This document shows positions 4,856 through 54,630 of a DNA stretch of 55,375 nucleotides, piece after piece. Under the pieces are notes generated by a model, which was not told the DNA's origin, ran no database searches, and saw only the letters and a program-made list of their open reading frames with translations. Source of the stretch: an uncultured bacterium (GTDB taxonomy: Bacteria > Krumholzibacteriota > Krumholzibacteriia > Krumholzibacteriales > Krumholzibacteriaceae); assembly GCA_964584495.1 (NCBI GenBank), contig CAZPAH010000004.1, forward strand, positions 1 to 55,375. The letters are read 5' to 3'. Each line of letters opens with the position of its first letter. Position 1 is the first letter of the stretch. The translations under genes and the position numbers were made by a program.

Positions 4856-4863
4856 CTAAAGCC

Positions 4864-5352: not shown

Positions 5353-5439
5353 ATCTTTTGGGCTGTTGATTCCTCATCGCAAGGACCGGTGCGGAGCGCC
5401 GGCCCGGCGGGGAGGCCGGAAAGGAAAGATATTAAAGGT

Positions 5440-6105: not shown

Positions 6106-6215
6106 GAGACCGATGGCGGTTTTGTGTGGACTCGCGCTTCCGGTCATGCCAGACTGAATGGGATTTATACCCCGGCACCGCCTGAAAATCACTAACGGAA
6201 AGGAAGGTTGTTGGA

Positions 6216-6638
6216 ATGAACGATCTACAGAAACGTATCCTGGAAATCATGCAGAAACCCCATATGGCGAGCCTGGCAACGGTGACCGAGGACGGGAAAC
6301 CGTGGGTAAGGTATGTGATGTCCGTAGCCTCGGACGATCTCACGATCCGCTTTTCGTCGTTCTTGAAAGCCAGGAAGGTCGCGCATATCAGGAAAAACCC
6401 CGAGGTGCACCTTACCTGCGGCGTGACCGACCCGATGAGCTGGAAAAGTTATCTTCAGATCCAGGGAAGGGCCGAGATAAGCACAGATCCCGCGGAGAAA
6501 AAGGACTTCTGGAACGACCATCTCAAGGAGATTTTCGAGGGACCGGACGATCCTAACTACGCCGTCGTGATCGTGAGGCCGTACAGGATGGAGCTCAACA
6601 CTATTGGAAGCTTCAAAGCCGAGGTGCTGGAGGTATGA
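6216..6638 (+). CDS. pyridoxamine 5'-phosphate oxidase-like / general stress protein 26 (FMN-binding split barrel)
   Basis: 'SLATVTEDGKPWVRYV', 'KV.HI.KNPEV', 'YLQIQGRAEI', 'FEGPDDPNY'. Confidence 0.85.
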   Translation: MNDLQKRILEIMQKPHMASLATVTEDGKPWVRYVMSVASDDLTIRFSSFLKARKVAHIRKNPEVHLTCGVTDPMSWKSYLQIQGRAEISTDPAEKKDFWNDHLKEIFEGPDDPNYAVVIVRPYRMELNTIGSFKAEVLEV

Positions 6639-7831
6639 TGACCGTCAAATCGTGTCGAAAGGCGCTGTGGCCGGCTCTTCTCTGCTTGTTTGCGATCGTG
6701 CCGCCCGTGAAGCCGGCCGATATGCCCGACGGCGGGCACGTTAATTCTTCAAGGTCTCTTGCGGGGCCGGCCTATTTGCGCAACGAGGCGGAAGGCGCGG
6801 GAATAATTTCGCTCACTCCGGAAACCGCCTCTAGGTTCGCCAGGATGGCGCTCGACTGCGTCGGAAGGGAGTATCCGAACAAACCGGGGCACGTGATGAA
6901 CGGAGCCGGTGATGTCAAGAATCCACGCGCGCTGCATCCTGCGTTCTACGGTTGTTTCGATTGGCATTCGTCGGTCCACGGGCACTGGATGATGGTCAGG
7001 CTTATCGGGACTTTCCCGAACCTCCCGGAAGCGGATGAGATCCGCTCGGTGCTCGATCGCGACCTGGCGGCTGAGAACATAGCGGCCGAGGTGGAATATC
7101 TCGGGCAGGAGAACCGTAAATCTTTCGAGAGAACCTACGGGTGGGCATGGCTTCTGAAGCTGGCTCAGGAGCTCGACCGCTGTCCCGACGGCAATGCGGC
7201 GAGGTGGCGCCTGAACCTGCAGCCCCTTGTCCACGTGATAGTCGATCGTTACCTCGATTTCTTTCCCAGGCAGACATACCCGATCCGCAGGGGCGTCCAT
7301 CCCAACAGCGCATTCGGCCTGGCGTTCGCACTCGATTACGCCCGTTCGGCGGGCGAGGGCAACCTGGCCGGTATGGTAGTGGAACGGAGCAGGAGCTATT
7401 TCGCCGGTGACGCAGGCTGCCCGGCCTCCTGGGAGCCGGACGGGGACGATTTCTTCTCGCCCTCGCTGATGGAGGCGGATCTGATGCGCAGGGTGATGGG
7501 AAAGGAAGAGTTCTCCGCCTGGCTGGACAACTTCCTGCCGGGCCTGGCCGCCGGCGTGCCCGAATCCCTTTTCCGGCCGGCCGAGGTTTCCGACCGGACC
7601 GATCCCAAGATAGTCCACCTCGATGGGCTGAACATAAGCAGGGCCTGGTGCATGCTGGGAATCGCTTCCAGGCTGCCGGACGGAGATCCCCGCAGGATCG
7701 TACTCGAGAAGTCCGCTCGAACCCATGCCGCCGCGACCCTGCCTCATGTCGCCAGCGGCAGCTACGAGGGCGAGCACTGGCTCGCCTCGTTCGCCGTCTA
7801 CATGCTCTCCGCAATGGAGAAGGGGCGATGA
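6635..7831 (+). CDS. DUF2891 domain-containing protein, probably exported
   Basis: 'HPAFYGCFDWHSSVHGHW', 'FERTYGWAWLL', 'HLDGLNISRAW', 'YEGEHWLASFA'; hydrophobic N-terminus. Confidence 0.9.
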   Translation: MMTVKSCRKALWPALLCLFAIVPPVKPADMPDGGHVNSSRSLAGPAYLRNEAEGAGIISLTPETASRFARMALDCVGREYPNKPGHVMNGAGDVKNPRALHPAFYGCFDWHSSVHGHWMMVRLIGTFPNLPEADEIRSVLDRDLAAENIAAEVEYLGQENRKSFERTYGWAWLLKLAQELDRCPDGNAARWRLNLQPLVHVIVDRYLDFFPRQTYPIRRGVHPNSAFGLAFALDYARSAGEGNLAGMVVERSRSYFAGDAGCPASWEPDGDDFFSPSLMEADLMRRVMGKEEFSAWLDNFLPGLAAGVPESLFRPAEVSDRTDPKIVHLDGLNISRAWCMLGIASRLPDGDPRRIVLEKSARTHAAATLPHVASGSYEGEHWLASFAVYMLSAMEKGR

Positions 7832-8295
7832 TCGAGATATCGGAGGCGGCGACGGCCGGGCAGCTGGAATCCGCAAAAGAGATGGTTCTGGAATATGCGC
7901 GCTCTCTCGAATTCGATCTCGATTTCCAGGATTTCGAAGAAGAGGTGTCGCGTTTCCCCGGCGAGTATGCGCCGCCCGGCGGAAGGATTCTTCTCGCCCT
8001 CAGCGGAGGCGAGGCCGCCGGGATCGTGGCGATGCACCGATCTTCCCCCGGTGTATGCGAGATGAAGAGGCTTTTCGTCCGGCCGCGCTTCAGGGGCCTG
8101 GGGATAGGAAAAGCCCTTGCTCTTAGGATCATCGAGGAAAGCCGGAAGGTGGGCTATTCGAAGATGAGGCTCGACACCCTCTCCTCGATGAAGGAGGCCA
8201 CGGCCCTCTATCTGTCTCTCGGTTTTTACGAGATCGAACCTTACAGGTTCAATCCGCTCGGCGATGCCGTCTTCATGGAGCTGACCCTCGATTGA
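7828..8295 (+). CDS. GNAT family N-acetyltransferase
   Basis: Start ATG 7828 overlaps upstream TGA (ATGA); 'EMKRLFVRPRFRGLGIGKAL', 'A..LY..LGF'. Confidence 0.9.
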   Translation: MIEISEAATAGQLESAKEMVLEYARSLEFDLDFQDFEEEVSRFPGEYAPPGGRILLALSGGEAAGIVAMHRSSPGVCEMKRLFVRPRFRGLGIGKALALRIIEESRKVGYSKMRLDTLSSMKEATALYLSLGFYEIEPYRFNPLGDAVFMELTLD

Positions 8296-8299
8296 CCCC

Positions 8300-9436
8300 T
8301 TACGAGAGCGTTTCCACCGCCTCTTCGAAAACAACGCCGCGTTCTCGAAGACCCTCGAGCATGAAATCGACGCATTCGGGGATCCTGCCCGCATACTCGG
8401 GAGGCGATATCCCTTTCAGGCCGTAAAGGCCCCGGGCGATCATCCTGGCAGCCACCGTCGCGGTGTACCCTGTCGTTCTTGCCATCGAGTGAACGCCAGT
8501 TTTCTCGTTGAAACGATCGAAAAGGTTGTAGGTGTACCGGAGGCGCCGGCCGTCCTTGAGGCCCTCAACGATGATTCTCATTATTGTAAGGTCCACCTCG
8601 CCGTCGCGGAGCTCCCATTTTGGAAAGAGAAGCTTGGCGGTGAAATCGAGAGGGCGGATTTTCGTTCCGTTTATCTCGATCTCCTCCTGGCTGAAGAAGC
8701 CCGTCTCCCTTAGTACGGCCATTTTCTGTATATGTCCGGGATATCTCAGTGTTTTTTCCTTCATGTTTGGCGCTTCAAGCGTCGAGGCCAGTGTTCTCAA
8801 TCCGTCGCTGTTGAACGCCTCAAGCGTGCCCAATCCCGGAAAATCTATGAGCTCGGGATCGGAAAGGGCCGGCCTCGTCACGAGCGTTCCGTTTTCCACG
8901 TACCTCGCCGGGCGGGTGTACTCCTCTATCACGTCGACGGGGGAGAATACGGCCTTGTACTCGTAGGGCCATTCCCTGTTCTCGGGAAGCCCGCCGACAT
9001 ATATGATCACGGTCTCGGTCTTGTCGAGCATCCGATCGACATGACCGGAGAGTATATTGCTCATCCCGGGAGCGATGCCGCAATCGACCAGTGCCGTTAC
9101 ATCCATCTCTTTTGCCAGCGGGTCGAGATCGAAAGGGTTTTCGGGAAAAAATGCTATGTCGACCACGTTTTTCCCTGCTTGAAGTACGGCTTCGAGCGTC
9201 CGGTACCCCATGAACCCGGGGACGGCGTTGATCACTATATCGTAGCCGCCGACCAGCGATTTCACGGCGCCCGGATCGGAGAGATCGTTCCTGATCGTCG
9301 TAATGGGAAGTTTTTCCAGCTTTGACAGGGCCGTTTCGCTGATATCGGCCGCGCTTACCTCGAATTTTGGGTCGGCGGCGAGATCGGCCGCCATGGGACC
9401 GCCCACCAGCCCGGAGCCGAGCACGATTGCTTTCAT
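8300..9436 (-). CDS. saccharopine dehydrogenase / lysine 6-dehydrogenase family protein
   Basis: GSGLVG Rossmann start, 'DCGIAPGMSN', 'LEAFNSDGLRTL', 'EKTLRYPGH'; GGAGG SD before ATG 9436. Confidence 0.88.
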   Translation of the reverse strand: MKAIVLGSGLVGGPMAADLAADPKFEVSAADISETALSKLEKLPITTIRNDLSDPGAVKSLVGGYDIVINAVPGFMGYRTLEAVLQAGKNVVDIAFFPENPFDLDPLAKEMDVTALVDCGIAPGMSNILSGHVDRMLDKTETVIIYVGGLPENREWPYEYKAVFSPVDVIEEYTRPARYVENGTLVTRPALSDPELIDFPGLGTLEAFNSDGLRTLASTLEAPNMKEKTLRYPGHIQKMAVLRETGFFSQEEIEINGTKIRPLDFTAKLLFPKWELRDGEVDLTIMRIIVEGLKDGRRLRYTYNLFDRFNEKTGVHSMARTTGYTATVAARMIARGLYGLKGISPPEYAGRIPECVDFMLEGLRERGVVFEEAVETLS

Positions 9437-9642
9437 TGGATCCTCCATGCCTGATGTCCCTTTGGAGCCTGATCTTCCCGGGGACACGGTGTTCGAGAAA
9501 TTCTGCTTTGGAAATTGATAGTTCAATTTACGGGGGAAAGCCGTCACAGGCCGTTGAACCGGTTCAGCCAGCCCACGATGAGAGCGAGGCCCTTGCGGAA
9601 AACAGATCGTTGACTCGTGTTTTCATAACCTTCCATGCTTGA

Positions 9643-9670
9643 ATATTACCGTAAGAGGGTGGATTGTCAA
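9643..9670 (-). promoter_or_regulatory. sigma70-type promoter (TTGACA-N16-TAATAT)
   Basis: Perfect TTGACA (9670-9665) and TAATAT (9648-9643) on the minus strand, about 200 nt upstream of the dehydrogenase. Confidence 0.55.
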
Positions 9671-9687
9671 CCCCCGATGCGAATGAT

Positions 9688-10758
9688 CTATACGAAGTCC
9701 CCGTCACCGAAGGTGATGTGCCACCGCTTGCCGTCGGCGATTTCTCTACAGCCGAGGGAATCGTCGTTGATCCTGACGATATAAGGGAAGGGTCTCTTTG
9801 GCATAAGGAATCCCGCCCGTTTGAACGCCTTCAGGAAAGGCGAGCCTTTCGGCAGGAGACATGAGGCCAGTGTCATCTTCTCTTCCCCGAACCAGCTCAA
9901 GGAGGCCCGCAAAAGTGACGAAACAGCGGCACTATCGTCCGGGGAAGCGAGAAAATCGACGATTAGACCTATCTTGACGCCGTCCCTCTCCCTTTTTCCG
10001 CACACGCAGTAGCCGGCCGGCTCGTCTGACCTGTAAGCGAAGAACCTTTTGTACGAGTGGCGGGGATTTTCATCGTACCTCCACCGGAGATATTTAAAGT
10101 CGCGGATCACATGGTTGCCGATAAGGGGGGACACCTTTTCATACAGCCCGTCCACTGAAGGGGTAAAGACAGGCTCGCTTTTCACCTTTATCCCGCCGCC
10201 GGTTCCTCCCGGCCTGAAGACGAGATCGAAGATCGCTTGCAGAGGCCTTCCCAGCACCGCGGCCGGGACACGCCCGCCAGGCTTCGCGAGGAGAAATCCT
10301 TGCATGCTCACCGGCCGGATCCAGGTGGGAATTTCCTCTAGGACGAAGAAATCGAGATGCTTTATGAATCCATGGAACGAGTTATCGTTGGGAAAGCCGT
10401 AGACGATGCTGACCCCGCTCGAGCGGGTATCTTCGTAGACCTTCTTTGCGAGGGTGACGAATATCCCCTGTTTCCTGTATCCGGGATCGGTCATCGTGTC
10501 GAGCGACAGAGCGCCGTCGATCCGAGTGCCCGAGACATTCATCCTGACGGGGATCGTCGCGTACTGCCCGGCGAGAATGCCGTTATCGTCGGCGAGGTAG
10601 ATGTACCCGCCCCTCGATACGGCCTCGGCGAACTGCCACCGCCAGCCGTCCTGGTCGAAAGCCCTGTCATGGACATTCCGGTAGAGCTCCCCGATCCTGC
10701 CGTCGTCACCACTCTCGAACGGCCGTGGCCTCCAGCGATATTCTTTCTCTTCGCTCAT
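9688..10758 (-). CDS. GNAT family N-acetyltransferase (two-domain)
   Basis: 'DTMTDPGYRKQGIF..L' acetyl-CoA motif A; 'YGFPN..S..GF'; found with polysaccharide deacetylase. Confidence 0.8.
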   Translation of the reverse strand: MSEEKEYRWRPRPFESGDDGRIGELYRNVHDRAFDQDGWRWQFAEAVSRGGYIYLADDNGILAGQYATIPVRMNVSGTRIDGALSLDTMTDPGYRKQGIFVTLAKKVYEDTRSSGVSIVYGFPNDNSFHGFIKHLDFFVLEEIPTWIRPVSMQGFLLAKPGGRVPAAVLGRPLQAIFDLVFRPGGTGGGIKVKSEPVFTPSVDGLYEKVSPLIGNHVIRDFKYLRWRYDENPRHSYKRFFAYRSDEPAGYCVCGKRERDGVKIGLIVDFLASPDDSAAVSSLLRASLSWFGEEKMTLASCLLPKGSPFLKAFKRAGFLMPKRPFPYIVRINDDSLGCREIADGKRWHITFGDGDFV

Positions 10759-10812
10759 ACCGTGACCGCCCGGTTCCTTACCCGTCCCGGTGCCGCGGAA
10801 GCGGTTAGGATG

Positions 10813-11649
10813 TCACCGGATAAGCCGGAACCAGGCCATTCTCCCTTCTATTTTTCTTTTAAACGTAACGAAGCCGTCGCTCGCCTGCACCGCCAGCCTC
10901 GGTATCTCAAAAGGGTTCTGGAAATCGATCGCGCCGGGAGCCGCGGTGCAGGCGGACCGGTATCCGGCGCGGATAACCATCTCGACATGCCGTTCGTTGA
11001 AAAAGCCTCCCGGGTAGCAAAACGAGCCTATCTCGGTCCCCAGCTTTTCCTCGAGCCTCCACTTGGATTCGGATATCTCCATCCAGGCCTCCTCGTCCGG
11101 CATATCGACCAGCCGCCGGTGGTTCATCGTGTGGGAGCCGATTTCCATCCTCTCGGAGAGGAGCTCCTCGATCTGCCGCCAGGATAATCTCCTGTTAGAT
11201 TCGGGATCTCCCGTTTCCCTCGCATCGCGGTCGGCGAGGCGGCCTGTCTCTATGAAATTGAAAGGAACGTAGAAAATGGCGGTATACCCGTACTTCTTGA
11301 GAATCGGAAATGCGTTCGTGAAATTATCCTCGTATCCGTCATCGAAGGAGAAGATCACCCTGGGGTCCTCGTTCCCGGCGTAGCCTACTAGCGATTCGAG
11401 ATCCTCCAACCTCATGTTGCGGTATCCCGACTGCCTGAGGTGGGCCACCTGTCTCTCGAAGCCCGATGGGGATACCGACATATCGTTTTTTCGGAATCGA
11501 TTAACCCGGTGGTACATCAGGACGGTAATGGTACCTCCCTTCTTGCCCCGGGGAAGGAGACCGGAGATCAAAGCGGCGGCAGATTTCACCGGCCGCTTAA
11601 CCGCGATCCTGGCCCGCATCTCCAGCGCGTCTTTGAAGCTCATCGCCAT
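10813..11649 (-). CDS. polysaccharide deacetylase (CE4/NodB) family protein
   Basis: 'VLMYHRV', 'FSFDDGY', 'EIGSHT.NH', 'FCYPGG' motifs. Confidence 0.9.
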   Translation of the reverse strand: MAMSFKDALEMRARIAVKRPVKSAAALISGLLPRGKKGGTITVLMYHRVNRFRKNDMSVSPSGFERQVAHLRQSGYRNMRLEDLESLVGYAGNEDPRVIFSFDDGYEDNFTNAFPILKKYGYTAIFYVPFNFIETGRLADRDARETGDPESNRRLSWRQIEELLSERMEIGSHTMNHRRLVDMPDEEAWMEISESKWRLEEKLGTEIGSFCYPGGFFNERHVEMVIRAGYRSACTAAPGAIDFQNPFEIPRLAVQASDGFVTFKRKIEGRMAWFRLIR

Positions 11650-11760
11650 ATTCCCTAAAAGAGGTTTTCCAACAGGCCTTTTTCCCCCAACGTCAGGTCA
11701 TTATTGTAACAGTAAGGGATAAAGTCAAGCATTGGTGCGGACGGTTCTCGAGCTTTCTTC

Positions 11761-11810
11761 TTGACGGGGGGGCATTTCCGTCATAATATATAGATAGTCG
11801 ATATATAGAG
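11761..11810 (+). promoter_or_regulatory. putative padR promoter and operator
   Basis: TTGACG-N17-TAATAT; ATATATAGA repeated at 11786 and 11801, overlapping the -10/start region. Confidence 0.4.
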
Positions 11811-11839
11811 ATAAAACATATTAGCGGCAGATCGTCGGG

Positions 11840-12196
11840 ATGCGTCTCATGAAGAAGAACTCGATAGAGATCCAGAATCTCACCAGAAACTGCAACGAGG
11901 ATCTCATCCTGGCCGTTCTCCACGGCGGCGACAGGCACGGGTACCAGCTGGCCCTCGAGATCGAGGAGAGGAGCGGCGGATTCTTCAGGTTCAACCACGG
12001 AACCCTTTACCCGATCCTTCACAAGCTAGAGAAGGAGGGAAAGATAAGGGGTTCGTGGCGGAAAGAGGCTGGAAGCAGAAAACGCAGGCGGTATTCGCTT
12101 ACGGCGGCGGGAAAAAGATACGTCGATGAGGAATCCGCCGCCTGGCGAAGATTTTTTGATAACTTTTTCGAGATCATGGGAGATGTGGAGAAATGA
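11840..12196 (+). CDS. PadR family transcriptional regulator
   Basis: 'LILAVL...RHGYQLA..IE', 'GTLYPILHKLE..G.I', 'RRRYSLTAAG'; true start may be 11849. Confidence 0.92.
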   Translation: MRLMKKNSIEIQNLTRNCNEDLILAVLHGGDRHGYQLALEIEERSGGFFRFNHGTLYPILHKLEKEGKIRGSWRKEAGSRKRRRYSLTAAGKRYVDEESAAWRRFFDNFFEIMGDVEK

Positions 12197-12933
12197 AAAG
12201 GTTTGCACGGCACCTGAAGCGGATCGATGAGAGGCTCGACCTGCCTCAGCCGGAGAGATCGAGGATTATACTTGAGATCGCCTCGGATATGGAAGAAATG
12301 TTCCGGTTCTACGTCGCCCGGGGTTTGGACGAGGAAGAAGCGGCCAGAAAGTCGGGGGAGATGTTCGACCTGTCCGACGAGGCTCTCTCCCAGCTCGTAG
12401 ATATACACATCTCTCCTTTCAACAGGTTCTTCGATAAACTCTCTCAGCAGGCCCGGACGAGATGGGAAAAGACGATGCTAGCCGCGGTGGTACTTATAAT
12501 AGCGGCGCTTTCAGGCAGGGAGGGCCTTTCGTCCGGGTTTATCAGGCAGGCGGGCGCTTTCGTATGGCCGGTCATCGGGATATCCTTTTTGGCCTGCGTC
12601 ATGGCGCTGGTTTTTCTCTACAGGCTGTACCTCAGGAAGGCCCGTGATGCGAAGGGGCTGCGCTCCGGCCTGACGCCCTTCCTCATGCTTGGAGGCGCGT
12701 CCCTTGTGACCGGGTTCTTCGGCCTTGCCGTCGAGCTGTACAGGGCGGCCAGGGCGGTAACGGGAGTGGGCGACGGTGCGCTCGGTCTCGGAATCAGGTG
12801 GGCGCTGACCTGCTCGGCGATGATGATGACAAGCCTTCTCGCGGCGATTGGCTGCGGCTTGATCTGGTTTGTCCTCGCGGGTAGGGTTAGAAGTATCGAG
12901 ATGGCCGAGGCCGAATGGCTTCTCGAGGAATGA
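12193..12933 (+). CDS. membrane protein with N-terminal HAAS/permease-prefix-like domain
   Basis: Soluble N-terminus 'ILEIASDMEEM....ARGLDEEEA' then about 4 TMs; ATGA overlap with padR. Confidence 0.6.
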   Translation: MKRFARHLKRIDERLDLPQPERSRIILEIASDMEEMFRFYVARGLDEEEAARKSGEMFDLSDEALSQLVDIHISPFNRFFDKLSQQARTRWEKTMLAAVVLIIAALSGREGLSSGFIRQAGAFVWPVIGISFLACVMALVFLYRLYLRKARDAKGLRSGLTPFLMLGGASLVTGFFGLAVELYRAARAVTGVGDGALGLGIRWALTCSAMMMTSLLAAIGCGLIWFVLAGRVRSIEMAEAEWLLEE

Positions 12934-12992
12934 GAGATCGAGAGCCGCGAGAGTAGAATCAATAACGGGGAATTATTCCCGGGGAGGATAAA

Positions 12993-13388
12993 ATGGGATA
13001 CTTTTTCAAATCGATGGGGATATGGTTCGTGCCGATAATGCTCATGACATTGGTGACGTTCGTAATGGCGCTGATACAGTCGATCCGGCTTTTCTTTGAT
13101 GGGGCCCGGCCGGATAGGAGAGTGGAGGGTGGGATCCATGCCATTATTTTCTGGGGCGCCGTCTGCGCCGCCACCGGGATACTGGGCCAGCTTTCCGGTA
13201 TTTATAAGGCCCTCAATGTAGTGGCGCGCGCGGCTGAGATTTCCCCGCAGGTCTGCGCGATGGGACTGGCCGAGTCCTATACGACGACCATATTCGGACT
13301 GGTCGTCTTCATCCTATCGGGATTCACCTGGTACGGGCTGCTTGCAAGGTACCGGAAACTGGCGGCCTCCGCGAACCTGCAGGCCTGA
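12993..13388 (+). CDS. short MotA/TolQ/ExbB proton-channel-like membrane protein
   Basis: 3 TMs; 'GILGQLSGIYKAL' and 'GLAESYTTTIFG' resemble the MotA/ExbB helix pair; GGAGG SD. Confidence 0.6.
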   Translation: MGYFFKSMGIWFVPIMLMTLVTFVMALIQSIRLFFDGARPDRRVEGGIHAIIFWGAVCAATGILGQLSGIYKALNVVARAAEISPQVCAMGLAESYTTTIFGLVVFILSGFTWYGLLARYRKLAASANLQA

Positions 13389-13487
13389 AAAGCGGAAGCG
13401 GTCATCGCGCCGACGCGGCCGCTCCGTCCGCTGCGGACGGGTATACGGCGCGGATTCCGTCATGCCGGCATGCTGTAGGGATTCCCC

Positions 13488-14375
13488 TCATGCCCGCCTG
13501 CCCCGCTGCGAGAGGAGAATCCCCGCCAGCATCAACGCGCAGCCGACCATTCCACGGGGGGGGATCGTCTCGGAAAGCAGCAGCCGGCCCCCCAGGACGG
13601 CGAAAACGGTCTCGAAGCTGAGGATGATCGCCGAGTGACCCGGGGGCGCCTTCTTCTGGGCGATAATCTGCAGGGTATAGGCTATCCCGACCGATATGAG
13701 GCCCCCGTAGAGGATCGGGACGGATGCAGAGATGAGGCTGCCTATATCTATCCGTTCCACCGTGAATGCGACCACGAGGCTGAACATCGAGCATACCGCG
13801 AACTGGATGCAGGCCAGCAGCAGGGAATCGATACTCCTTGTGAACCGCCCTATCATGAGCACGTGCACCGCCCAGAAGAAGGTGCTGAGCAGAACGAGGA
13901 TATCACCTCGCATTATGCTGAATCCGCCCGTGAAACTGAGTAGGTAGAGGCCGGCAGCGGCGATCACCGCCCCGGCCCACGTTGTGCGCGGTGTTTTCTG
14001 GTGAACCACGAGCCCCAGGATCGGGACCAGTATGACATAGAGCCCCGTGATGAACCCCGCCTTCCCCGCCGTCGTGTAGACGATTCCGGCCTGCTGGAGG
14101 GAGGCGGCCAGGAAGAGAACCGTACCGGCGGCGAAACCTGCGATATATACGCTCAATCCTTTACTCCGGACCCTGGTATCCGGGTCGGCTGAAGTGCGTT
14201 TTCTGGATAGAAGGATGAACGGCAGCAGGGCGAGGCTTCCCAGCGCGAAACGGACGCCGTTGAATATGAAAGGTCCCACATCCTCCATGCCGACGCGCTG
14301 GGCCACGAAAGCGAATCCCCAGATCGCCGCCGCGAGAAGAAGCAGAAGCTCCGATTTCAGTATTCCCTTTTGCAC
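13488..14375 (-). CDS. DMT (EamA) family transporter
   Basis: 'AAIWGFAFVAQ', 'FNGVRF', 'KAGFITGLYV', 'Q..AQK..PP..AIILS.E.VF'. Confidence 0.93.
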   Translation of the reverse strand: MQKGILKSELLLLLAAAIWGFAFVAQRVGMEDVGPFIFNGVRFALGSLALLPFILLSRKRTSADPDTRVRSKGLSVYIAGFAAGTVLFLAASLQQAGIVYTTAGKAGFITGLYVILVPILGLVVHQKTPRTTWAGAVIAAAGLYLLSFTGGFSIMRGDILVLLSTFFWAVHVLMIGRFTRSIDSLLLACIQFAVCSMFSLVVAFTVERIDIGSLISASVPILYGGLISVGIAYTLQIIAQKKAPPGHSAIILSFETVFAVLGGRLLLSETIPPRGMVGCALMLAGILLSQRGRRA

Positions 14376-14617
14376 AATAAGTTCTCTCCGCCGGACTATC
14401 TAAAGCCCGTCGCCCGGCTTCGGGCCAGAGGAGCATAGAGGAGCCGGCCGATCAAGTCAAGCCGATGAAGCGGGATCCCAGCGAGTCGGGGCCGTTAAAA
14501 TACGGCCCGGACCGTAAAAAAGGTTTCGCCAAAGGCCCTTTAGTATTTACAATATCCCGGCGGGGTCTGTTGCGGCCCTGCATGACCTTTCGGTAACATT
14601 CACGGAGAGGGCTTGCG

Positions 14618-16831
14618 ATGAAACCGGTCTATCTAGATTATAACGCCACCACCCCGGTCGCGCCGGAGGTGGCGGCCGAAATGCGGCCCTACCTTGAAGA
14701 GCTTTTCGGAAATCCATCCAGTTACCACTGGTACGGGATTCAGACCAAGCAGGCGGTCGGCAAGGCGCGTTCTAGGCTGGCTTCCCTGCTAGGCTGCCTT
14801 CCCGAGGAGATCGTATTCACGAGCGGCGGCAGCGAATCGAACAACCTGGCGATAAAGGGAGCGGCTTTCGCGCGGCGGGCGGAGGGGGATCACATAATAA
14901 CTTCCAGCATCGAGCATCCCGCAGTCTCGGAGGTGTGCCGTTATCTCGAAGGTGTCGGTTTCAGGGTGACCTATCTGCCGGTCGACGGCACCGGGCTTGT
15001 CTCGGTGGAGGATTTCATCGATTCGATCACGCCGCAGACGATACTGGCTACCGTGATGCACGCGAACAACGAGGTCGGAACGATCCAGCCGATCGCCGAA
15101 CTGGCCGCGGCGGCCGGGAAGAGAGGGATCACATTTCATACCGACGCCGCGCAGTCGGTAGGAAAGATAGAGGTCAAGGTAGGCGTCCTCGGCGTCGATC
15201 TGCTCTCCGTGGCGGCGCACAAGTTTTACGGCCCCAAGGGCGTGGGGGCGCTTTATATACGGGCGGGGACAAAGATCGAGAAGCTCGTTCATGGAGCCGA
15301 TCATGAGAGAAACTTGAGGGCCGGAACGGAGAATATACTCGAGATTGTAGGACTCGGCATGGCCGCCGGCATAGCCGAAAGGGACCTCGTCAAGAACAGT
15401 GCGCATATGGAAAAGATGCGGGACAGGCTTCAGCTGGGGCTGACCGGCCAAATTCCCGACCTCAAGATCAATGGAAACACGGAAAAGCGGCTTCCCAACA
15501 CGTTGAGCGTCAGCTTCCCGGGCATAGAGGCAAACACGCTTCTCGACGAAATAGGGGAAGAAGTGGCGGCATCGGCCGGCGCGGCCTGTCATACCGATTC
15601 GATAGACATCTCGGCCGTGCTCGAAGCGATGAAGGTGCCGGTAGGGGTGGCGATGGGGACCGTGCGGTTCTCCACGGGAAGGATGACCACGGCGGGCGAG
15701 ATCGACCGCGCGATCGAGGTCATAGTCCCGGCGGTGCGGAGGCTGCGGCCCGAGGGAGGCGCGGCCGTCGGGGAAGGGACGCCGGAAGAGGAGGTCAAGC
15801 TTACGCATTTCACCCATGGGCTCGGCTGCGCCTGCAAGCTGCGTCCCCAGGACCTTGAGAAGGTTCTCGAGGGGTTACCCGTGGCGGTCGATCCAAACGT
15901 CCTCATAGGAAAGGACACTTGCGACGATGCGGCCGTGTACAGGCTGGACGATGAGAAGGCGATCGTCCAGACCGTCGATTTCTTCACCCCGATAGTCGAT
16001 GACCCGTTCAGTTTCGGAGCGATCGCGGCGGCCAATTCGTTGAGCGATATATACGCGATGGGGGCGAAGCCTCTATTCGGCCTCAATATCGTGGGATTCC
16101 CTCCCAAGAGGCTTCCAATGAGCGTTCTGCGAAGGATTCTCGATGGGGCGATGGCAAAGGCCGACGAGGCGGGGATCTCGATAATCGGCGGGCACACGAT
16201 AGAGGATACCGAGCCTAAGTACGGCCTCGTGGTGACCGGCATAGCGAAACCGGGCGAGATCCTTTCCAACTCGGGGGCCCGGCCCGGCGATTCGATTATA
16301 CTGACCAAACCGCTGGGCACCGGGATCATCGCCACCGCGATGAAAAGGGGGATCGCGCCAAGGGCCGTCGAAGAGGCGGCAGTCGCCGTCATGAGCGGGC
16401 TGAATCTCGGGGCGGCGGAAGCGATGAACGGTTTCAATGTCGATTCTTGCACCGATGTCACGGGCTTCGGTCTTATGGGCCACCTCAGGGAGATGACGAG
16501 GGGAAGTGGGGTCGACGCGGTAATATGGAACGGCCGTGTCCCGGTGATCGAGGGCGTGAAAGAGCTGGTGCTGGCCGGTTCGGTGCCGGGAGGAACGGTC
16601 AACAATATGGATTTCGTGGAGAAGGATACCGATTGGGACGCGGCGGTATCGAGAACCGACCGGGTGATCCTCTGCGACGCGCAGACCTCGGGGGGACTTC
16701 TTATAGCGCTGCCGGAATCAGAAGGGGTCAGGTTGCTGGACACCCTCCTCACCCGCGGCATTGGGGCCGCGATCATCGGAAGGTTCGAGAACGAGGGAAG
16801 CGGCAGGATAAAGGTTTTACAGGGAAAGTGA
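14618..16831 (+). CDS. selD: fusion: NifS/IscS-like PLP enzyme (cysteine desulfurase / Sec lyase) + selenide,water dikinase SelD
   Basis: N-half: YLDYNATTP, FTSGGSESNN, HTDAAQ, SVAAHK (PLP Lys), SAGAACH. C-half from about 15794: GLGCACKL, DDAAVY, QTVDFFTP, ANSLSDIYAMG, GGHT, DVTGFGL, DAQTSGGLL. Confidence 0.93.
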   Translation: MKPVYLDYNATTPVAPEVAAEMRPYLEELFGNPSSYHWYGIQTKQAVGKARSRLASLLGCLPEEIVFTSGGSESNNLAIKGAAFARRAEGDHIITSSIEHPAVSEVCRYLEGVGFRVTYLPVDGTGLVSVEDFIDSITPQTILATVMHANNEVGTIQPIAELAAAAGKRGITFHTDAAQSVGKIEVKVGVLGVDLLSVAAHKFYGPKGVGALYIRAGTKIEKLVHGADHERNLRAGTENILEIVGLGMAAGIAERDLVKNSAHMEKMRDRLQLGLTGQIPDLKINGNTEKRLPNTLSVSFPGIEANTLLDEIGEEVAASAGAACHTDSIDISAVLEAMKVPVGVAMGTVRFSTGRMTTAGEIDRAIEVIVPAVRRLRPEGGAAVGEGTPEEEVKLTHFTHGLGCACKLRPQDLEKVLEGLPVAVDPNVLIGKDTCDDAAVYRLDDEKAIVQTVDFFTPIVDDPFSFGAIAAANSLSDIYAMGAKPLFGLNIVGFPPKRLPMSVLRRILDGAMAKADEAGISIIGGHTIEDTEPKYGLVVTGIAKPGEILSNSGARPGDSIILTKPLGTGIIATAMKRGIAPRAVEEAAVAVMSGLNLGAAEAMNGFNVDSCTDVTGFGLMGHLREMTRGSGVDAVIWNGRVPVIEGVKELVLAGSVPGGTVNNMDFVEKDTDWDAAVSRTDRVILCDAQTSGGLLIALPESEGVRLLDTLLTRGIGAAIIGRFENEGSGRIKVLQGK

Positions 16832-16855
16832 TTTTCCGACCGCCGGGGAGCGCCG

Positions 16856-17827
16856 ATGAAGAAACTTGGGAAAAAGATTTTTATCGAGTATTTTTTTATA
16901 ACGTTGGGAGCGTTCGTCATGTCTGTCGGCGTCGCCGTTTTCCTTGTCGACGCGAAGGTGGTTCCGGGGGGCGTGACGGGGCTTTCGATGGCGATCCACT
17001 ATCTCTCCGGCGGCAGGCTGCCCGTGGGGATCATGATGTGGGTTTTAAATCTGCCCCTCTTCATCTGGGGCGTTATCGAGCTCGGAAAATCCTTCGGGTT
17101 CAGAACATTCTGGGGTTTTTCGGTCAATGCGTTCTGCATCGATTTTCTCCGGGGGGACATAGTCGGCTCGATACGGCTGCAGGACACAAAGACCGTAAGA
17201 TATCTACTGGAGAACGATTTCTTCTTTCTCATCCTTCTTGGGGCACTCTTTCTCGGGATCGGCCTCGGAATCATCTTCAAGTTCAAGGGAACTACGGCGG
17301 GAAGCGATATCGTCGCGGCGATCGCTAGAAAGAGATGGAGGGTAAAACCGGGCATTTCGATAATCGTCACCGATTTCTTCGTGATATGCCTTGCGGGGGT
17401 TGTAATACAGGTCAAGGGCTTGTCCCCCGAGAAGCCCGTGCTGCTCCTGATGCTTTATTCGTTTCTCCTCCTCGTCGTCTCCTCCCAATTGATAGATGTG
17501 GTGATATTCGGTTTCGACTACGCCAAATCGGCATGCATCATTTCGGACAGGCACGCCGAGATCGCCGACAGGATTGTCCACCTGATGGGACGGGGAGCTA
17601 CCGCCTTCCACGGGAAGGGTCTTTACAGCGGCGTCGAACGGGATATCATCTTCACCGTCGTTTCGAGGAGGGAGATCTACAGGCTGGTGGACATGGTCAA
17701 GGAGATCGATCCGGACGCTTTCGTGATCATCAACAGGGTACACGAGGTGCTCGGCGAGGGTTTCATGGCGAGGGGCGAGGTCGATCTCGACAGGCTGAAG
17801 TTTCCAAAAATCCGGCCCGAAGGCTGA
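16856..17827 (+). CDS. YitT family membrane protein (DUF2179 C-terminal)
   Basis: 'PGGVTGLS', 'GTTAGSDI', C-terminal 'RGATAFHGKG.YS', 'IDPDAFVII'. Confidence 0.9.
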   Translation: MKKLGKKIFIEYFFITLGAFVMSVGVAVFLVDAKVVPGGVTGLSMAIHYLSGGRLPVGIMMWVLNLPLFIWGVIELGKSFGFRTFWGFSVNAFCIDFLRGDIVGSIRLQDTKTVRYLLENDFFFLILLGALFLGIGLGIIFKFKGTTAGSDIVAAIARKRWRVKPGISIIVTDFFVICLAGVVIQVKGLSPEKPVLLLMLYSFLLLVVSSQLIDVVIFGFDYAKSACIISDRHAEIADRIVHLMGRGATAFHGKGLYSGVERDIIFTVVSRREIYRLVDMVKEIDPDAFVIINRVHEVLGEGFMARGEVDLDRLKFPKIRPEG

Positions 17828-17874: not shown

Positions 17875-18357
17875 ATGAGCGGTTACCACATGAAACGCGT
17901 CGACAGAACGATCGGGGAGGCGAAGACCATCCGGGATATTCTTGCCCGGCGCAGGCTGGCGACGATCGCCCTATGCCGGGAAGGGGAGCCGTACATAGTA
18001 ACGATGAATTACGGTTATGACGAAGAGGGAAACGCGCTGTATTTTCACTGCGCCGCAGAGGGGCTCAAGCTCGATTTTATCGCAGCCAACCCGAGCGCTT
18101 GCGTTTCGATCGTCGAGGATCTCGGTTACGTGGAGGGAAAATGCGACCACAGGTACCGGTCCATCGTGATAAGGGGGAAGGCATCGCTCGTCGGGGAGCT
18201 CGAGGAAAAGAAGCGTGGAATCAACGTGCTCATGGAACACCAGGAAAGCGATCCGGACCCGGTGAGACAAAGGAACTTCCGGAGCGATGCCGATTACGGC
18301 GGCTTCGAGATAATCAGGATCGATATCGGCGAGGTTACGGGAAAAGAGAGTGTTTGA
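17875..18357 (+). CDS. pyridoxamine 5'-phosphate oxidase / NimA-like flavin-binding protein
   Basis: 'PYIVTMNYGY', 'LYFHCAAEGLKLD.I..NP', 'YRSIVIRG'; start approximate. The upstream part of the track ORF is a shadow of yitT. Confidence 0.85.
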   Translation: MSGYHMKRVDRTIGEAKTIRDILARRRLATIALCREGEPYIVTMNYGYDEEGNALYFHCAAEGLKLDFIAANPSACVSIVEDLGYVEGKCDHRYRSIVIRGKASLVGELEEKKRGINVLMEHQESDPDPVRQRNFRSDADYGGFEIIRIDIGEVTGKESV

Positions 18358-18434
18358 CGATGCCGGCGGGAATATGACGTGGTACGGTCGGGCCACCGGA
18401 TTCGGTAACGATAAAAACGGGAGGTAGATAACAG

Positions 18435-19631
18435 ATGAAAAAACTGTCGGGACTCACCGAGCGAGCCTTTCTCAATATTGCCTTGGCGGCCGCGCTGGCG
18501 GCCGCAGCCGCTTTCGCCGCCTGCGAAAGGAAAGAAGCGCCACCTGCACCGGGAAGGGGGGAAGAGAGGGTATCGGATGAAACCTTTCCGGTCCCTTCGA
18601 TAGAGTTTCTACCGGAACGTTATGTCTGCCGGAGGACCCTCGAACCGATCGATGTGGACGGGAAGTTGGACGAAGAATCGTGGGATAAGACTTTGTGGAC
18701 CTCCGATTTCGTGAATATAACCGGCATGGGCGCTACGCCGCCCGACAGGACCCATCTGAAAATGCTGTGGGATCAAGACTATCTCTATATAGGAGCGGAG
18801 ATATTCGAGCCCGATATCTGGGGGAATATGACCGGGCGCGACGCGGAGATTCATCTCGAGAACGACTTCGAGATCTTCATCGATCCCAACGGCGATTCGC
18901 ACGAGTACTACGAAATCGATGTGAACGCCCTCGGGACCGTGTCGGATCTTTTCATGGTAAGACCTTACCGTGACGGCGGCCCCGCGATCCGTTCATGGGA
19001 TATCCGGGGGCTCTTGCTGAAGGTGGATGCCGGGGGAACCGTCAACAGGCCGGGAGATACCGACACGGGCTGGACCTTCGAGGCAGCTATACCCTGGACG
19101 GTTCTTGCCGAGGGCGCCCACAGGAAGGTTCCTCCCGATGAGGGCGAGATATGGAGATTCAACTTCTGCCGCACCGAATGGCCGCTCGATGTCGAGGACG
19201 GAAAATATCTGAAAAAGACCGAATTTGAGACGGGCCAACCGATGAAGGAGATTATATCCAGCTGGTCGCCGCAGGGGATAGAGGACATGCACTACCCGGA
19301 GATGTGGGGATTCGTTATTTTCACGCATGCCGACCGGTACTACGCCGGCGGGCCTCCGACACCGGGGATGGAGGAAAAGGCGCAGTGGGCGATGAGAAGG
19401 CTCTATTATAGCGAGAAGACCCATTTTCTACAGTACGGCACCTACTCCCGCGATATCGGAGTGCTGGGCATGTCCGGCGAGGACGTGTACGGGTTCAGCT
19501 GGCCGCCGCGGATAGATACGACGGGCGATATGTTCGAAGCCGTCCTGGAGTCGGACGATGGAAGCATGAGGATTACGATCACAAATGACGGGAAGCTCGT
19601 TACCACCGTGACGGACAATCATTCGCAGTAA
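18435..19631 (+). CDS. CBM9-like (DOMON-type) carbohydrate-binding lipoprotein
   Basis: Lipobox FAAC; 'IDVDGKLDEESW', 'KMLWDQDYLY', 'FEIFIDP', 'WRFNFCR', 'MHYPEMWG'. Confidence 0.78.
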   Translation: MKKLSGLTERAFLNIALAAALAAAAAFAACERKEAPPAPGRGEERVSDETFPVPSIEFLPERYVCRRTLEPIDVDGKLDEESWDKTLWTSDFVNITGMGATPPDRTHLKMLWDQDYLYIGAEIFEPDIWGNMTGRDAEIHLENDFEIFIDPNGDSHEYYEIDVNALGTVSDLFMVRPYRDGGPAIRSWDIRGLLLKVDAGGTVNRPGDTDTGWTFEAAIPWTVLAEGAHRKVPPDEGEIWRFNFCRTEWPLDVEDGKYLKKTEFETGQPMKEIISSWSPQGIEDMHYPEMWGFVIFTHADRYYAGGPPTPGMEEKAQWAMRRLYYSEKTHFLQYGTYSRDIGVLGMSGEDVYGFSWPPRIDTTGDMFEAVLESDDGSMRITITNDGKLVTTVTDNHSQ

Positions 19632-23939: not shown

Positions 23940-26900
23940 TTACCGAAGAAGAACGAGCCGTCTGCTGACCGAGTAGATTCCCGTCTTGAGCCGGCAGAAG
24001 TATACGCCGCTGGCGGCCGTTCTCCCGCGCGAGTCGCGCCCGTCCCATATGACACTGTGGCCGCCGCTTTCCTGGACCTCGTCGACAAGGATCCGGACCG
24101 GCCTTCCGGTAACATCGTATATCGCGAGAGATACCCTCGAGCGGGAGGCCGTTTCGTAGGCGATTCTCGTCGATGGATTGAACGGGTTCGGATAAGCCGG
24201 CTTCAGGGCATTGACATAAGAAGCGGCTGGAGGGTCTTCACCGGTGACATGCTCGGTCGTCAGCTCGATATCGTCGATGTACCATCCCTCGAATCCGTAC
24301 TGCTCGTCGCTGGCGAAATGGAACCGGAGAAGCACGGGTCCGTGCCACCCGGACAGGTCGAATGTCTCCATCGTCCAGCCGATACTTCCCGAGTAACATC
24401 TCTGGTAGGCGCTGAGGAAGATCGTGTTGGATGAGCTTGCCCTGCAGGGATACGTCCCCGAGGGATTGATAATCGTCCATGTCTTTCCGCCGTCGGTGGA
24501 TATTTCGACGACCGAAGCGTCACTGGCCCAGTACGGATATGTCTCGCCGGCTTCGGCTTCCATCTTGTGCCAGAAGCTGAAGACGGAATTTTCGTAGAGG
24601 CAGAGCGGAGGGGTGACGAGCACCGCCTCCATCATGTTCGGGTAGAGCCCGCCGTTTGTGGAGCCGCACTTCCAGCTCGAAGGCGCCGAATGGTAATCCT
24701 GTCCGCTCAGATGCCATCCGTCCACGCCGATGATAGAGCTGTGGTCCCACGGTTCCTCGATGAGGACTTCGTCGCTCAGGCCCGAGCCGCACGATTTGAG
24801 AGTTATAAGCTCGGTGTGGGGATCGATATTCTTGCCGGAAAGGGTGAGAAATACGGTGAGATCGGAGAAGGGGGGTGTGGTTTCCCTGACGAAGAAGACG
24901 AGGCGACCCTCCGAGGAGACTGTGGATCCGGCCGGGATATCGGGCAGCTCTTCGGCGACGGTGATCGGTTTGACCCATCCCCCCTCGGGGCATTCGATCG
25001 TCAGAACCGGTGATAGAATATCTATGGACCCCATGTTGCTCCACGTGCTGTGGAGATTCTCGAATTCCCACGAATCGATGCAGCCGTTTCCGTTGCCGTT
25101 GAGGGTGTCCGCGATCGAGAACGAGTTCATTATCAGGCCGGGGGCGTTGACGGTCAATGAATGGTACGAGTTCCACTGGTTATCGATGGTAGTAATATTG
25201 AATGCGAGATTGAGGCAGTACCCGTCAGGAATCGAGCCGTCGACTTCGAAAAGGAACGCCTTCTCCAGTATTATGACGGCCCTGACCGGGATATCGCCGA
25301 TCGGGCGGGAGGAGGTCGTTACCGATATATATTCGCCGGGACAGGAGAGATTGACACGCGTATCGCGCGCGACCGCGGTCCCCGTATTCTTTACCGCTAT
25401 GTCCAATTCTATCGTCTCGCCGCTTTCTATGATTCCGTCCCCGTCCCCCCAGCTCGCTCCGACGGTGTCGTCGTCGACGGCGAAATAGATAAGCTCCGGG
25501 CGGGCTTTGGAAAGGCTGTCGACGCTGATCGTAGCGTTGTAGAGGTAATGGTTGCCGGCCTGCACCGATAGAAGGAGATCCCTTTTAGAATCGAGGCAGG
25601 TCTCCAGGCTGACCGCGCCTGAAGGATCCGTGTACCGTGACAGATAGAAGTAGGGATCATCGCCGTAGAGGGAGACCCGCGCTCCCTCCAGGGGACCATC
25701 GATATCGGCGACCCCGACCACGAAGGAATTGTTGCCTATGGCGATGATGCTGTCGTGCGTGACGGCGAGGTAGGTCGGGGTATCGGTCCAGACATGCATC
25801 GCCGGATCCCCCAGCAGGCACATCTCGTACATTACATAGAGCACCGCCGCGTAATCGACGAATGGGATGTTGTCGATCCTCGAGTCGTCGAAAGCCCTGC
25901 CGATCTCCGTGATGCCTTCGCCGAAAAGGGCGTCGAAAAACTGCCTATCGAAGAACTGGGATACACCGCACGTCGAGCCGGGGGAATCCCAGCCGAGCCT
26001 TGTATTCCCGATGAAGGCCACCGCTCCGGCCGGACCGTTGACCAGCTGTTCGCCGATGGCGTCGTCGACAAAGTAGGCGCCAGCATTATCCCTGTTATCG
26101 AAGGCGCCGGCGAAGCATCCCTGCGAGTAGAGGACGAAGGGCATCTCGCCGGTCCCCGCGTTGGTGAGGGAAGGGACATCCCATGTCGCGATCCTCATGA
26201 TATTGTGCAATCCGCCATGCCCGAGATGGTTTACGATGTTCACCCCGGCGTTCAGCAGCGGCAGGACATGCGTCGCGTTCCACGTGAAGCCTATATCGCG
26301 GTCGTAGAGGGTCGATATGCCGATCGATCCGTCGATGGCCGCGGTGGTGAAACCGTATTCGGATGAGCCGTAAATTATCTCGTCCTTGTAATCCCCTCCC
26401 CACGTTATTTCCCCCTCGATATCCCAGAGGAGCTCCCCGAGCATCAGGGCGGTTGCCGGGACTCCCTCCGGCGGTGAGATCGAGTAGACGAGGAGCTTGT
26501 TGTAGAAATTGTCGACCTCGTCCGCGTTCGATACGGGCAATCTGCCCAGAACGACCTCGGGTATCAGGTCCTCTTCGCCCGGTTCGCCGTAATATGCGTC
26601 CCCGTCGCCGTTCCAGTTTCCGTCGAGGGCCGCGTAATAAAGATCGGAGGCTATATCAGGTTCGATCTCGCTGCCCGCTTTAACGTACAACGACCTGTGT
26701 GGGATGATCTCTACGTCGCCCCCTAGAAGAACGTACTCGGTCTGTCGGTTCTGCCTGTAGTCGGCTATGAAGTTGCGGATCTTCTCCTGGATATCGGCGC
26801 CCGAATAGAGCGCCGATATCGAATCGGTGGTGACTATAGCGGCCGCCAGCCCCTCCTGGGTCTTCAGTGCGGCCAGCGGTTGGAACGAGGGGGCGAGCGA

Positions 26901-48753: not shown

Positions 48754-48787
48754 GTCGGATTCCTCTCTTCCTGTTTCCCGAAGGACC

Positions 48788-50248: not shown

Positions 50249-50285
50249 TTTTCCTGCGAAACCCGAATCCATAGCAGTTTCCTTC

Positions 50286-54527: not shown

Positions 54528-54564
54528 GGGACCCCTTCGTAATGAGCCTCTCCTTACAGTGTTA

Positions 54565-54591
54565 TACGGAAAGAGCTCCGATATAGTTACA
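54565..54591 (-). promoter_or_regulatory. putative ECF-sigma promoter (TGTAAC-N17-CGTA) heading the RND/ABC operon
   Basis: Minus strand TGTAAC 54591-54586 and CGTA 54568-54565, about 38 nt upstream of the ATPase start. Confidence 0.4.
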
Positions 54592-54630
54592 GTCCGCCCG
54601 AACCGGCCGCCCGTTACAGCAATCTGCCCG

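Follow-up and report, generated by a model that had tools for sequence, protein, structure and literature searches.

The window analysed here is a 55,375-nucleotide stretch of DNA from an uncultured bacterium of the Krumholzibacteriota (assembly GCA_964584495.1, contig CAZPAH010000004.1, positions 1–55,375). The gene under study is an open reading frame (ORF) that joins a NifS-like pyridoxal 5′-phosphate (PLP) enzyme to a selenophosphate synthetase, SelD, in one polypeptide. Its features are given by window position, with residues numbered along the fusion protein and paired where applicable with those of E. coli IscS, human selenocysteine lyase (hSCL) and E. coli SelD.

14618–16831, + strand: the whole NifS–SelD fusion ORF of 737 residues, with ATG start and TGA stop, as read from the ORF itself
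14604–14610, + strand: Shine–Dalgarno-like GGAGAGG, 7 nt 5′ of the fusion ATG, read directly from the sequence
14618–15751, + strand: group-I NifS/IscS-like PLP domain, residues 1–378 (Pfam Aminotran_5 at 4–364; phmmer match to IscS)
14912–14923, + strand: E99-H100-P101-A102, with His100 equivalent to IscS His104 and Pro101 at the hSCL Asp146 / IscS Lys position
15212–15223, + strand: A199-A200-H201-K202, with Ala199 at the IscS Ser203 / hSCL Val256 position
15578–15592, + strand: mobile catalytic loop G321-A-A-C324-H325, with Cys324 (15587–15589) equivalent to IscS Cys328 and His325 to hSCL His389
15752–15793, + strand: inter-domain linker, residues 379–392, EGGAAVGEGTPEEE, hypervariable in 120 homologues
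15794–16828, + strand: SelD (selenide, water dikinase) domain, residues 393–737 (TIGR00476; alignment with E. coli SelD)
15827–15838, + strand: SelD N-terminal glycine-rich loop C404-A-C406-K407, equivalent to E. coli Cys17-Gly-Cys19-Lys20, with TGC codons
15923–16246, + strand: AIRS domain, residues 436–543, with Asp437, Asp454, Asn473 and Asp477 equivalent to E. coli D51, D68, N87 and D91
16280–16813, + strand: AIRS_C domain, residues 555–732, with Asp613 equivalent to E. coli SelD D227

The initial annotation had described a single 737-residue ORF holding a complete PLP enzyme and a complete SelD, and both points held. Pfam placed Aminotran_5 (4–364), AIRS (436–543) and AIRS_C (555–732) in that order; the Aminotran_5 match covered model positions 1–370 of 371 (E = 6e-71), and the SelD domain aligned end to end with residues 3–341 of 347 of E. 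coli SelD (3u0o; E = 3.1e-81). The positions assigned earlier to Lys202 (AAG, 15221), Cys324 (TGT, 15587), CACK (15827–15838), EHPA (14912) and GAACH (15578) were exact. A weak promoter-like match lies 5′ of the ORF at 14526–14553. A stop codon in the linker, which the annotation had named among the findings that would undo the fusion, was looked for in metagenome data. The gene was detected in several salt-marsh metagenome runs (Logan contigs), and independently built contigs from four salt-marsh runs crossed the NifS–linker–SelD junction with neither a stop nor an indel. One of these (X1 record 3) corresponded to 14979–16000, X3 and X4 spanned the linker with 0 differences, and the linker was unchanged in contigs from three runs. 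Three variants within the gene were seen in the environmental contigs, every one synonymous, and GC content at the three codon positions was the same in both halves (GC3 0.74 for NifS and 0.75 for SelD). The fusion would be an artefact or a relic if it reflected a chimeric assembly, an overlooked stop or frameshift, or a pseudogene in decay. Nothing was found in favour of such an origin, and it was rejected as hardly credible given the unchanged junction in contigs of four runs, the exclusively synonymous variation, the equal codon bias of the two halves and the more than 120 homologues of the same architecture.

Judged by its sequence, the N-terminal domain is a PLP enzyme of the group-I NifS/IscS type, complete and with every catalytic residue in place. 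By phmmer, it matched E. coli IscS (1p3w) with E = 3.8e-95, compared to about 1e-24 for SufS-type enzymes, and the highest-scoring proteins overall were IscS/NSFS1-type desulfurases (322 bits). In the alignment, His104, Asp180, Gln183, Lys206, Cys328 and Arg354 of IscS corresponded to His100, Asp176, Gln179, Lys202, Cys324 and Arg350 of the fusion, which makes Lys202 (15221–15223) the PLP Schiff-base lysine. Pro101, Ala199 and His325 were invariant in 120 of 120 fusion homologues, as were Glu99 and His100; Ala102 was found in 118. The best NCBIfam match was NifS (TIGR03402), with 462.7 bits versus a cutoff of 530.75, and the IscS models (TIGR02006 / NF010611) gave 390.1 versus 643.2 and 391.1 versus 548; all four of the best models (NifS, IscS, DndA and epsilon-NifS) were under their curated cutoffs. 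Since the domain scores below the cutoffs of both, it counts as neither NifS nor IscS in the strict sense. The NifS/IscS hallmarks S-G-S-A-C-T and S-G-H-K are replaced by A-G-A-A-C-H and A-A-H-K, the C-terminal stretch of approximately 13–23 residues that IscS has beyond the PLP domain is absent, and no NifU or IscU gene was found in the window or in the flanks of the relatives. SclA of Enterococcus faecalis is likewise a bacterial PLP enzyme, with a proposed role in selenium supply from selenocysteine (Sec), but the domain does not belong to that group-II Sec lyase family (NF040779; 106.9 bits versus a cutoff of 525).

The C-terminal domain passed the SelD equivalog cutoffs of NCBIfam (TIGR00476, 380.1 bits versus 125; PRK00943, 357.6 versus 299). 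Its segment G-L-G-C404-A-C406-K407 pairs with G-A-G-C17-G-C19-K20 of E. coli SelD; Cys404, Cys406 and Lys407 were invariant in 120 homologues and Ala405 was present in 119 of 120. Cys404, Lys407, Asp437, Asp454, Asn473, Asp477 and Asp613 were all invariant in a 60-sequence homologue alignment, the last five being equivalent to E. coli D51, D68, N87, D91 and D227, which we take to be metal- and ATP-binding residues. The description of the enzyme as Cys-type and not Sec-type was correct, with TGC codons at 15827–15838 and Cys404 as the Cys17 equivalent. By alignment, then, this half is a complete Cys-type selenophosphate synthetase, and the fusion very probably has SelD activity. All catalytic residues of E. 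coli SelD (3u0o) are kept; E. coli SelD and Aquifex SelD (2yye/2zod) are stand-alone enzymes, whereas the fusion tethers the mobile N-terminal loop of SelD to a PLP enzyme.

The two domains are connected by a linker of 12–15 residues that was hypervariable across 120 homologues, in which both flanking domains were strongly conserved, as expected of a tether. A monomer model was built with AlphaFold2 (AF2) on the family alignment (mean predicted local distance difference test (pLDDT) 87.4, predicted template modelling score 0.62). The PLP domain was mostly above 90 and residues 410–737 were confident; pLDDT fell below 50 in exactly three segments, namely the Cys324 loop (323–329), the linker (379–390) and the Cys404/Lys407 loop (402–409). 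The Cys loop of IscS and SCL and the N-terminal loop of SelD are mobile in the known structures. In the model, the low-confidence segments would be the very parts that a selenium hand-off would have to move.

The architecture itself has been described before and is annotated in databases, so that the window gene adds one member to a known class. A Sec-containing NifS–SelD fusion with a CxxU motif was reported in Geobacter sp. FRC-32 (Zhang et al. 2008, PMC2398784); two bacterial cases and copies in Acanthamoeba and Naegleria, attributed to horizontal transfer, were later described (Mariotti et al. 2015, PMC4561486), and a Spironucleus copy is mentioned in PMC6006210. In all known SelD fusions the partner is N-terminal, and the host genomes have selenoproteins and the Sec machinery (PMC4561486). 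The product name 'cysteine desulfurase NifS/selenium donor protein' is in use at JGI. The published Geobacter and protist fusions have the same order, with a NifS-like COG1104 domain N-terminal to SelD, and are predicted to have kept the ability to make selenophosphate; that of Geobacter is a CxxU selenoprotein, whereas the window protein and 120 relatives are Cys-type (C-A-C-K). Class membership of the window fusion rests on architecture, the Geobacter and protist copies being set beside it by description. Fusions of SelD to an NADH-dehydrogenase-like protein (Ndh–SelD) likewise extend a Cys-type SelD at the N-terminus and are thought to aid selenium supply, but differ in their partner domain, in having a CxxC motif and in being far commoner in marine datasets.

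The fusion had been called rare rather than unprecedented at the outset; the reports above support the precedent, and the distribution, which is broad among sediment bacteria, contradicts the rarity. All 120 of the 120 best-scoring 90%-identity clusters were fusions (732–787 residues, 62–72% identity), the closest database proteins being 71–72% identical to the window protein. Among GTDB species representatives, the full fusion was present in 63 of the best 80 loci, from about ten phyla (at least 63 species). The hosts included many Bacteroidales as well as Zixibacteria, Chloroflexota, Acidobacteriota, Ignavibacteria, Phycisphaerae, Krumholzibacteriota, Eisenbacteria, Deltaproteobacteria and two metagenome-assembled genomes (MAGs) labelled as archaeal. 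A query restricted to the junction (residues 290–500) returned some two dozen 50%-identity clusters with one match over both halves. Loci L063–L080, which match the NifS half only, were considered as Sec (UGA) read-through forms and rejected: L063 is cut by its contig end, and the other 16 are stand-alone genes with ordinary stops and no SelD downstream or within 10 kb.

The two archaeal-labelled loci, L018 (Thorarchaeota MAG, JAWOEX010000042.1) and L026 (Methanosarcinales MAG, JAIWHF010000027.1), carry a bacterial-type fusion at 62% identity and nest among bacterial fusions in a rough tree, which would be either binning contamination or inter-domain transfer. Four further proteins, P0131 (919 residues), P0141 (655), P0185 (1,202) and P0243 (737), matched the junction query only over its SelD part, the N-terminal end of that domain, and far from their own N-termini, a hint of further SelD fusion architectures with other partners.

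The residues that set Sec lyases apart from cysteine desulfurases were compared at three positions near the catalytic Cys. In hSCL, Asp146 is needed for Sec specificity; the corresponding residue is Lys in other group-I enzymes, and the D146K exchange is necessary and sufficient for desulfurase activity (Collins et al., PMC3266270). At the other two positions, hSCL has Val256 where Ser or Thr is found elsewhere and His389 in place of Thr or Ala (PMC3266270). The hSCL residues were obtained by translating the mutagenesis primers of that paper, and the other proteins were aligned from real sequences. The motifs at the Asp146, Val256 and His389 positions, respectively, were as follows.

Human SCL: EH-D-S, V-GHK and AAC-H
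E. coli IscS: EH-K-A, S-GHK and SAC-T
nif-cluster NifS (Pseudanabaena, the one compared): EH-A-C, S-GHK and SAC-T
Fusion: EH-P-A, A-(G/A)HK and AAC-H

The fusion domain therefore lacks both the Lys and the Ser of IscS, whereas the Pseudanabaena NifS retains the Ser and has Ala at the Lys position. Ala199 is neither the Val of hSCL nor Ser, although like Val it has no hydroxyl. The earlier observation that GAACH resembles eukaryotic Sec lyase more than IscS was upheld (GAAC-H389-SDH in human SCL, SACT in IscS and NifS), as was that of EHPA in place of EHDS, Pro101 occupying the Asp146 position throughout the family. Against the mammalian SCL structures, the fusion domain scored 235–238 bits, E. 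coli IscS 176–182 and nif-NifS 198. By these scores, which exceed those of both desulfurases, the fusion clade appears to lie closer to SCL than classical desulfurases do; the sign is real but modest. Mammalian SCLY (3gzc, 3a9x), which works with SPS2, has in common with the fusion the group-I fold, GAAC-H and the loss of the PLP-contacting Ser. It differs in Asp146 and Val256 versus Pro and Ala, in being approximately 35–40 residues longer over the aligned span (410–412 SCL versus 375 fusion residues) and in not being fused to SPS2. E. coli IscS differs at all three motifs (EHKA/SGHK/SACT versus EHPA/A(G/A)HK/AACH) and in its C-terminal tail.

The EHPA/ACH signature extends beyond the fusion. 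It is common to 16 stand-alone relatives (377–385 residues, about 60% identity), and plasmid-borne alphaproteobacterial homologues also bear the signature of the clade. In a rough neighbour-joining tree, for which no support values were computed, fused and free forms intermingled within a single clade, with IscS and NifS outside it. No conserved neighbours of the stand-alone members were found. The PLP domain belongs to a distinct clade (EHPA/AGHK/ACH). Conceivably, this so far unnamed bacterial group-I clade, fused as well as free-standing and with no IscS-type tail, would be the prokaryotic counterpart and possibly the source of eukaryotic Sec lyase. Its members would be dedicated Sec lyases with a specificity solution other than Asp146, and the fusion would provide a closed Sec-to-selenophosphate recycling route with no release of selenide. 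We regard this extension as doubtful. One stand-alone member of the EHPA/AGHK clade, L089 on Methylocystis rosea plasmid pGW6_1 (NZ_CP034087.1, record 4457–17557), has the loop SAC-R and lies with genes for two DsrE-family proteins, an ArsR/SmtB regulator, three SAM-dependent methyltransferases, an MBL-fold hydrolase and an MFS transporter, an arrangement suggestive of the handling or methylation of a chalcogen (S, Se or Te).

Selenium-related genes were sought in the window and around the relatives. A tblastn search with E. coli SelU placed selU upstream of the fusion in 14 loci, all from Bacteroidota, where it runs on the same strand and ends approximately 80 bp before the fusion gene; two representative selU products scored 363 and 369 bits versus the MnmH/SelU equivalog cutoff of 241. 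This linkage ties the fusion family to selenium use and, for Bacteroidota, gives direct genomic evidence of a role of the fusion in the selenouridine trait. The other recurrent neighbours in Bacteroidales, as read from representative sequences, are housekeeping synteny. With E. coli K-12 probes, tblastn found no SelA, SelB, YqeB or YqeC homologue within 10 kb of any fusion, and a local ARAGORN run, with E. coli selC as positive control, detected no tRNA-Sec within 10 kb in the 63 fusion loci. The window itself contains no tRNA, selC / tRNA-Sec included, and no Rfam match at the gathering threshold, and a literature search on selenium in Krumholzibacteriota returned nothing relevant.

We read the gene, from a Krumholzibacteriota genome of salt-marsh sediment, as encoding a bifunctional selenium-mobilizing enzyme of the known NifS–SelD class, with intramolecular hand-off from Cys324 to the N-terminal loop of SelD, and give this reading a probability of roughly 0.7; true intramolecular channelling of selenium, taken as a point of its own and already raised in the initial annotation, seems probable with somewhat less confidence and gains strength from the adjacent selU of the 14 Bacteroidota genomes. 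In the proposed mechanism, free l-selenocysteine would lose its selenium by β-elimination at the PLP domain (and cysteine perhaps its sulfur), and Cys324 in the mobile active-site loop would capture the selenium as a Cys324-S-Se(−) adduct. The same loop would pass it to the mobile glycine-rich loop of SelD (Cys404/Lys407), some 12 residues past the linker, where the AIRS domains would use ATP to yield selenophosphate, AMP and Pi, so that free toxic selenide would never be released. The selenophosphate would then feed SelU (2-selenouridine in tRNA) and/or Sec-tRNA synthesis (SelA), encoded elsewhere in the genome. The N-terminal position of the PLP partner fits all known SelD fusions because the selenium-accepting loop of SelD sits at that end. 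In vitro, SelD receives selenium from NifS-like proteins (Lacourciere 2000, cited in PMC4561486), and E. coli IscS, CsdB and CSD, which are reported there as donors to SelD in trans (Lacourciere et al. 2000), are proposed to use the same PLP-lyase chemistry with Cys-bound selenium. Those three enzymes are separate from SelD, whereas the fusion is one chain. Direct delivery to selenophosphate synthetase by a mobile Cys loop has also been proposed for hSCL (PMC3266270). Also counted in favour of this reading were the completeness and scores of both domains, the hypervariable linker between them, the three low-confidence segments of the model, the selU linkage, the missing IscS tail together with the lack of an adjacent IscU or NifU gene, the one-to-one retention of IscS and SelD residues that are invariant in 60–120 homologues, and the conservation of the fusion in at least 63 species with only synonymous environmental variants.

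Several points weigh against this reading. No biochemical study of any NifS–SelD fusion was found in the searchable literature, and with Pro in place of hSCL Asp146 a preference for Sec is not predictable. The AF2 monomer is uninformative on the relative geometry of the domains and on the dimers that both parents form. No selA, selB, selU, yqeB or yqeC was present among the 47 genes called in the window, so selenium use by this organism is not demonstrable from the window. A scan of the window for split selenoprotein genes with in-frame TGA gave no convincing candidate, only adjacent gene pairs that share a frame by chance, and outside Bacteroidota no selenium gene was linked to the fusion within 10 kb.

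The strongest competing explanation is that the PLP domain is an ordinary sulfur-acting cysteine desulfurase and that selenium reaches SelD as free selenide, not via Cys324. In one version, the domain would supply sulfur for the 2-thiouridine that SelU turns into 2-selenouridine, coupling the sulfur and selenium steps of one tRNA modification. SelU acts on thiolated uridine, and selU is the only selenium gene ever seen next to the fusion, which would suit that version; the overall closeness to IscS/NSFS1-type enzymes, the NifS model as best NCBIfam match and the missing Sec-specificity Asp of hSCL point the same way. However, the domain remains under the cutoffs of the NifS, IscS, DndA and epsilon-NifS models, it is devoid of the IscS Lys that confers desulfurase activity on hSCL and has Ala for the PLP-contacting Ser, no IscU, NifU, MnmA, ThiI or Tus gene is adjacent, and the literature reports the fusion also in Sec-using genomes. 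We consider an ordinary desulfurase unlikely.

A role for the PLP domain mainly as a selenium carrier or chaperone is less likely still. Here, Cys324 would be loaded non-enzymatically, from selenide or glutathione selenotrisulfide, and the lyase chemistry would be dispensable. Such a role would suit the invariant Cys324-His325 pair on a mobile loop, and the existence of selenium-delivery proteins for SelD is a long-standing postulate (PMC11431864), but His100, Asp176, Gln179, Lys202 and Arg350 are invariant across the family, and this retention of all PLP- and substrate-binding residues speaks for maintained catalysis. It is more improbable again that the organism has no use for selenium and that the SelD-like half has drifted to another chemistry, such as making thiophosphate from the sulfide that the PLP domain releases. 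The 55-kb window shows no selenium trait, and NCBIfam curators keep an oxidoreductase/SelD-related family, TIGR04369 'fusion_not_SelD', apart from SelD; the window protein is nevertheless far under the cutoff of that family (137.9 bits versus 700) and far over those of the SelD equivalogs, every SelD catalytic residue is invariant, and relatives are linked to selU. The Cys324-to-SelD hand-off was preferred over all three.

Two genes flank the fusion in the window.

16856–17827, + strand: YitT_membrane + DUF2179 gene, 24 nt 3′ of the fusion stop, directly downstream in every Krumholzibacteriota relative examined
13488–14375, − strand: divergent EamA/DMT-family transporter upstream, syntenic in Krumholzibacteriota relatives and given as context only

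The gene order EamA, fusion, YitT/DUF2179, PNPOx-like, CBM9, M20 peptidase, Impact_N, rhomboid, patatin, carbonic anhydrase and C25 peptidase is common to Krumholzibacteriota MAG contigs whose fusion proteins are 68–72% identical, and this synteny assigns the window to the same phylum. The YitT gene is a possible operon partner of the fusion: it overlaps the fusion by 4 bp in relative L084, and no terminator-like site was found between the two genes in the window. Adjacency of YitT and EamA to the fusion was absent outside Krumholzibacteriota, and since the YitT pairing does not recur in other phyla it may reflect general synteny only. The TGA of the fusion and the YitT gene share a reading frame, eight sense codons apart (16829–16858), and read-through would give a protein of about 1,070 residues. 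This was dismissed as coincidence, as the frame relation differs in L084 and L085. Between the EamA gene and the fusion, where the window has only a 242-bp intergenic region (14376–14617), all four Krumholzibacteriota relatives (L084–L087) encode a GH99 glycoside hydrolase, in L084 as two separate pieces. In L087 (contig QTKF01000018.1), a separate 324-residue AIRS/AIRS_C protein, probably ThiL and less probably a second SelD-like enzyme, is encoded at 18189–19163 (− strand), 6 kb from the fusion gene, with no counterpart in the window.

Further along the window, a 1,220-residue C25 (gingipain-type) peptidase is encoded at 23940–27605 (− strand), with a sub-threshold Por_Secre_tail match (22.5 bits versus the Pfam cutoff of 27). 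It is conserved in Krumholzibacteriota relatives and would be a candidate type IX secretion cargo. A 1,573-residue ORF at 39897–44621 (− strand) combines a complete AcrB-type resistance-nodulation-division (RND) transporter (ACR_tran, 6–1022) with a C-terminal ABC_tran domain (1298–1441), which would be an unusual fusion. The same operon includes genes for a second RND pump, an HlyD-type adaptor, an outer-membrane factor, a 1,118-residue Golvesin_C protein and a separate ABC ATPase. An eight-gene block at 39197–55260 (− strand) has a GC3 of 0.82–0.87 versus 0.61–0.78 in the other 39 genes of the window, a sharp shift in composition that suggests horizontal acquisition of an efflux island.

The route by which selenium is brought to selenophosphate synthetase with no poisoning by free selenide is still unsettled (PMC11431864). 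For a test of direct hand-off, a natural covalent NifS–SelD fusion offers the cleanest system available, with the donor Cys324 and the acceptor Cys404/Lys407 lying about 80 residues apart in one chain, and the family is large enough for covariation analysis and for picking well-behaved orthologues. The interest therefore lies in the family and not in the locus, the importance of the window gene itself being modest. The signature of the clade, with Pro for Lys/Asp, Ala for Ser/Val and His after the catalytic Cys, offers a second test of the rules for selenium versus sulfur derived from hSCL, and the PLP-domain clade may be a bacterial counterpart of eukaryotic Sec lyase.

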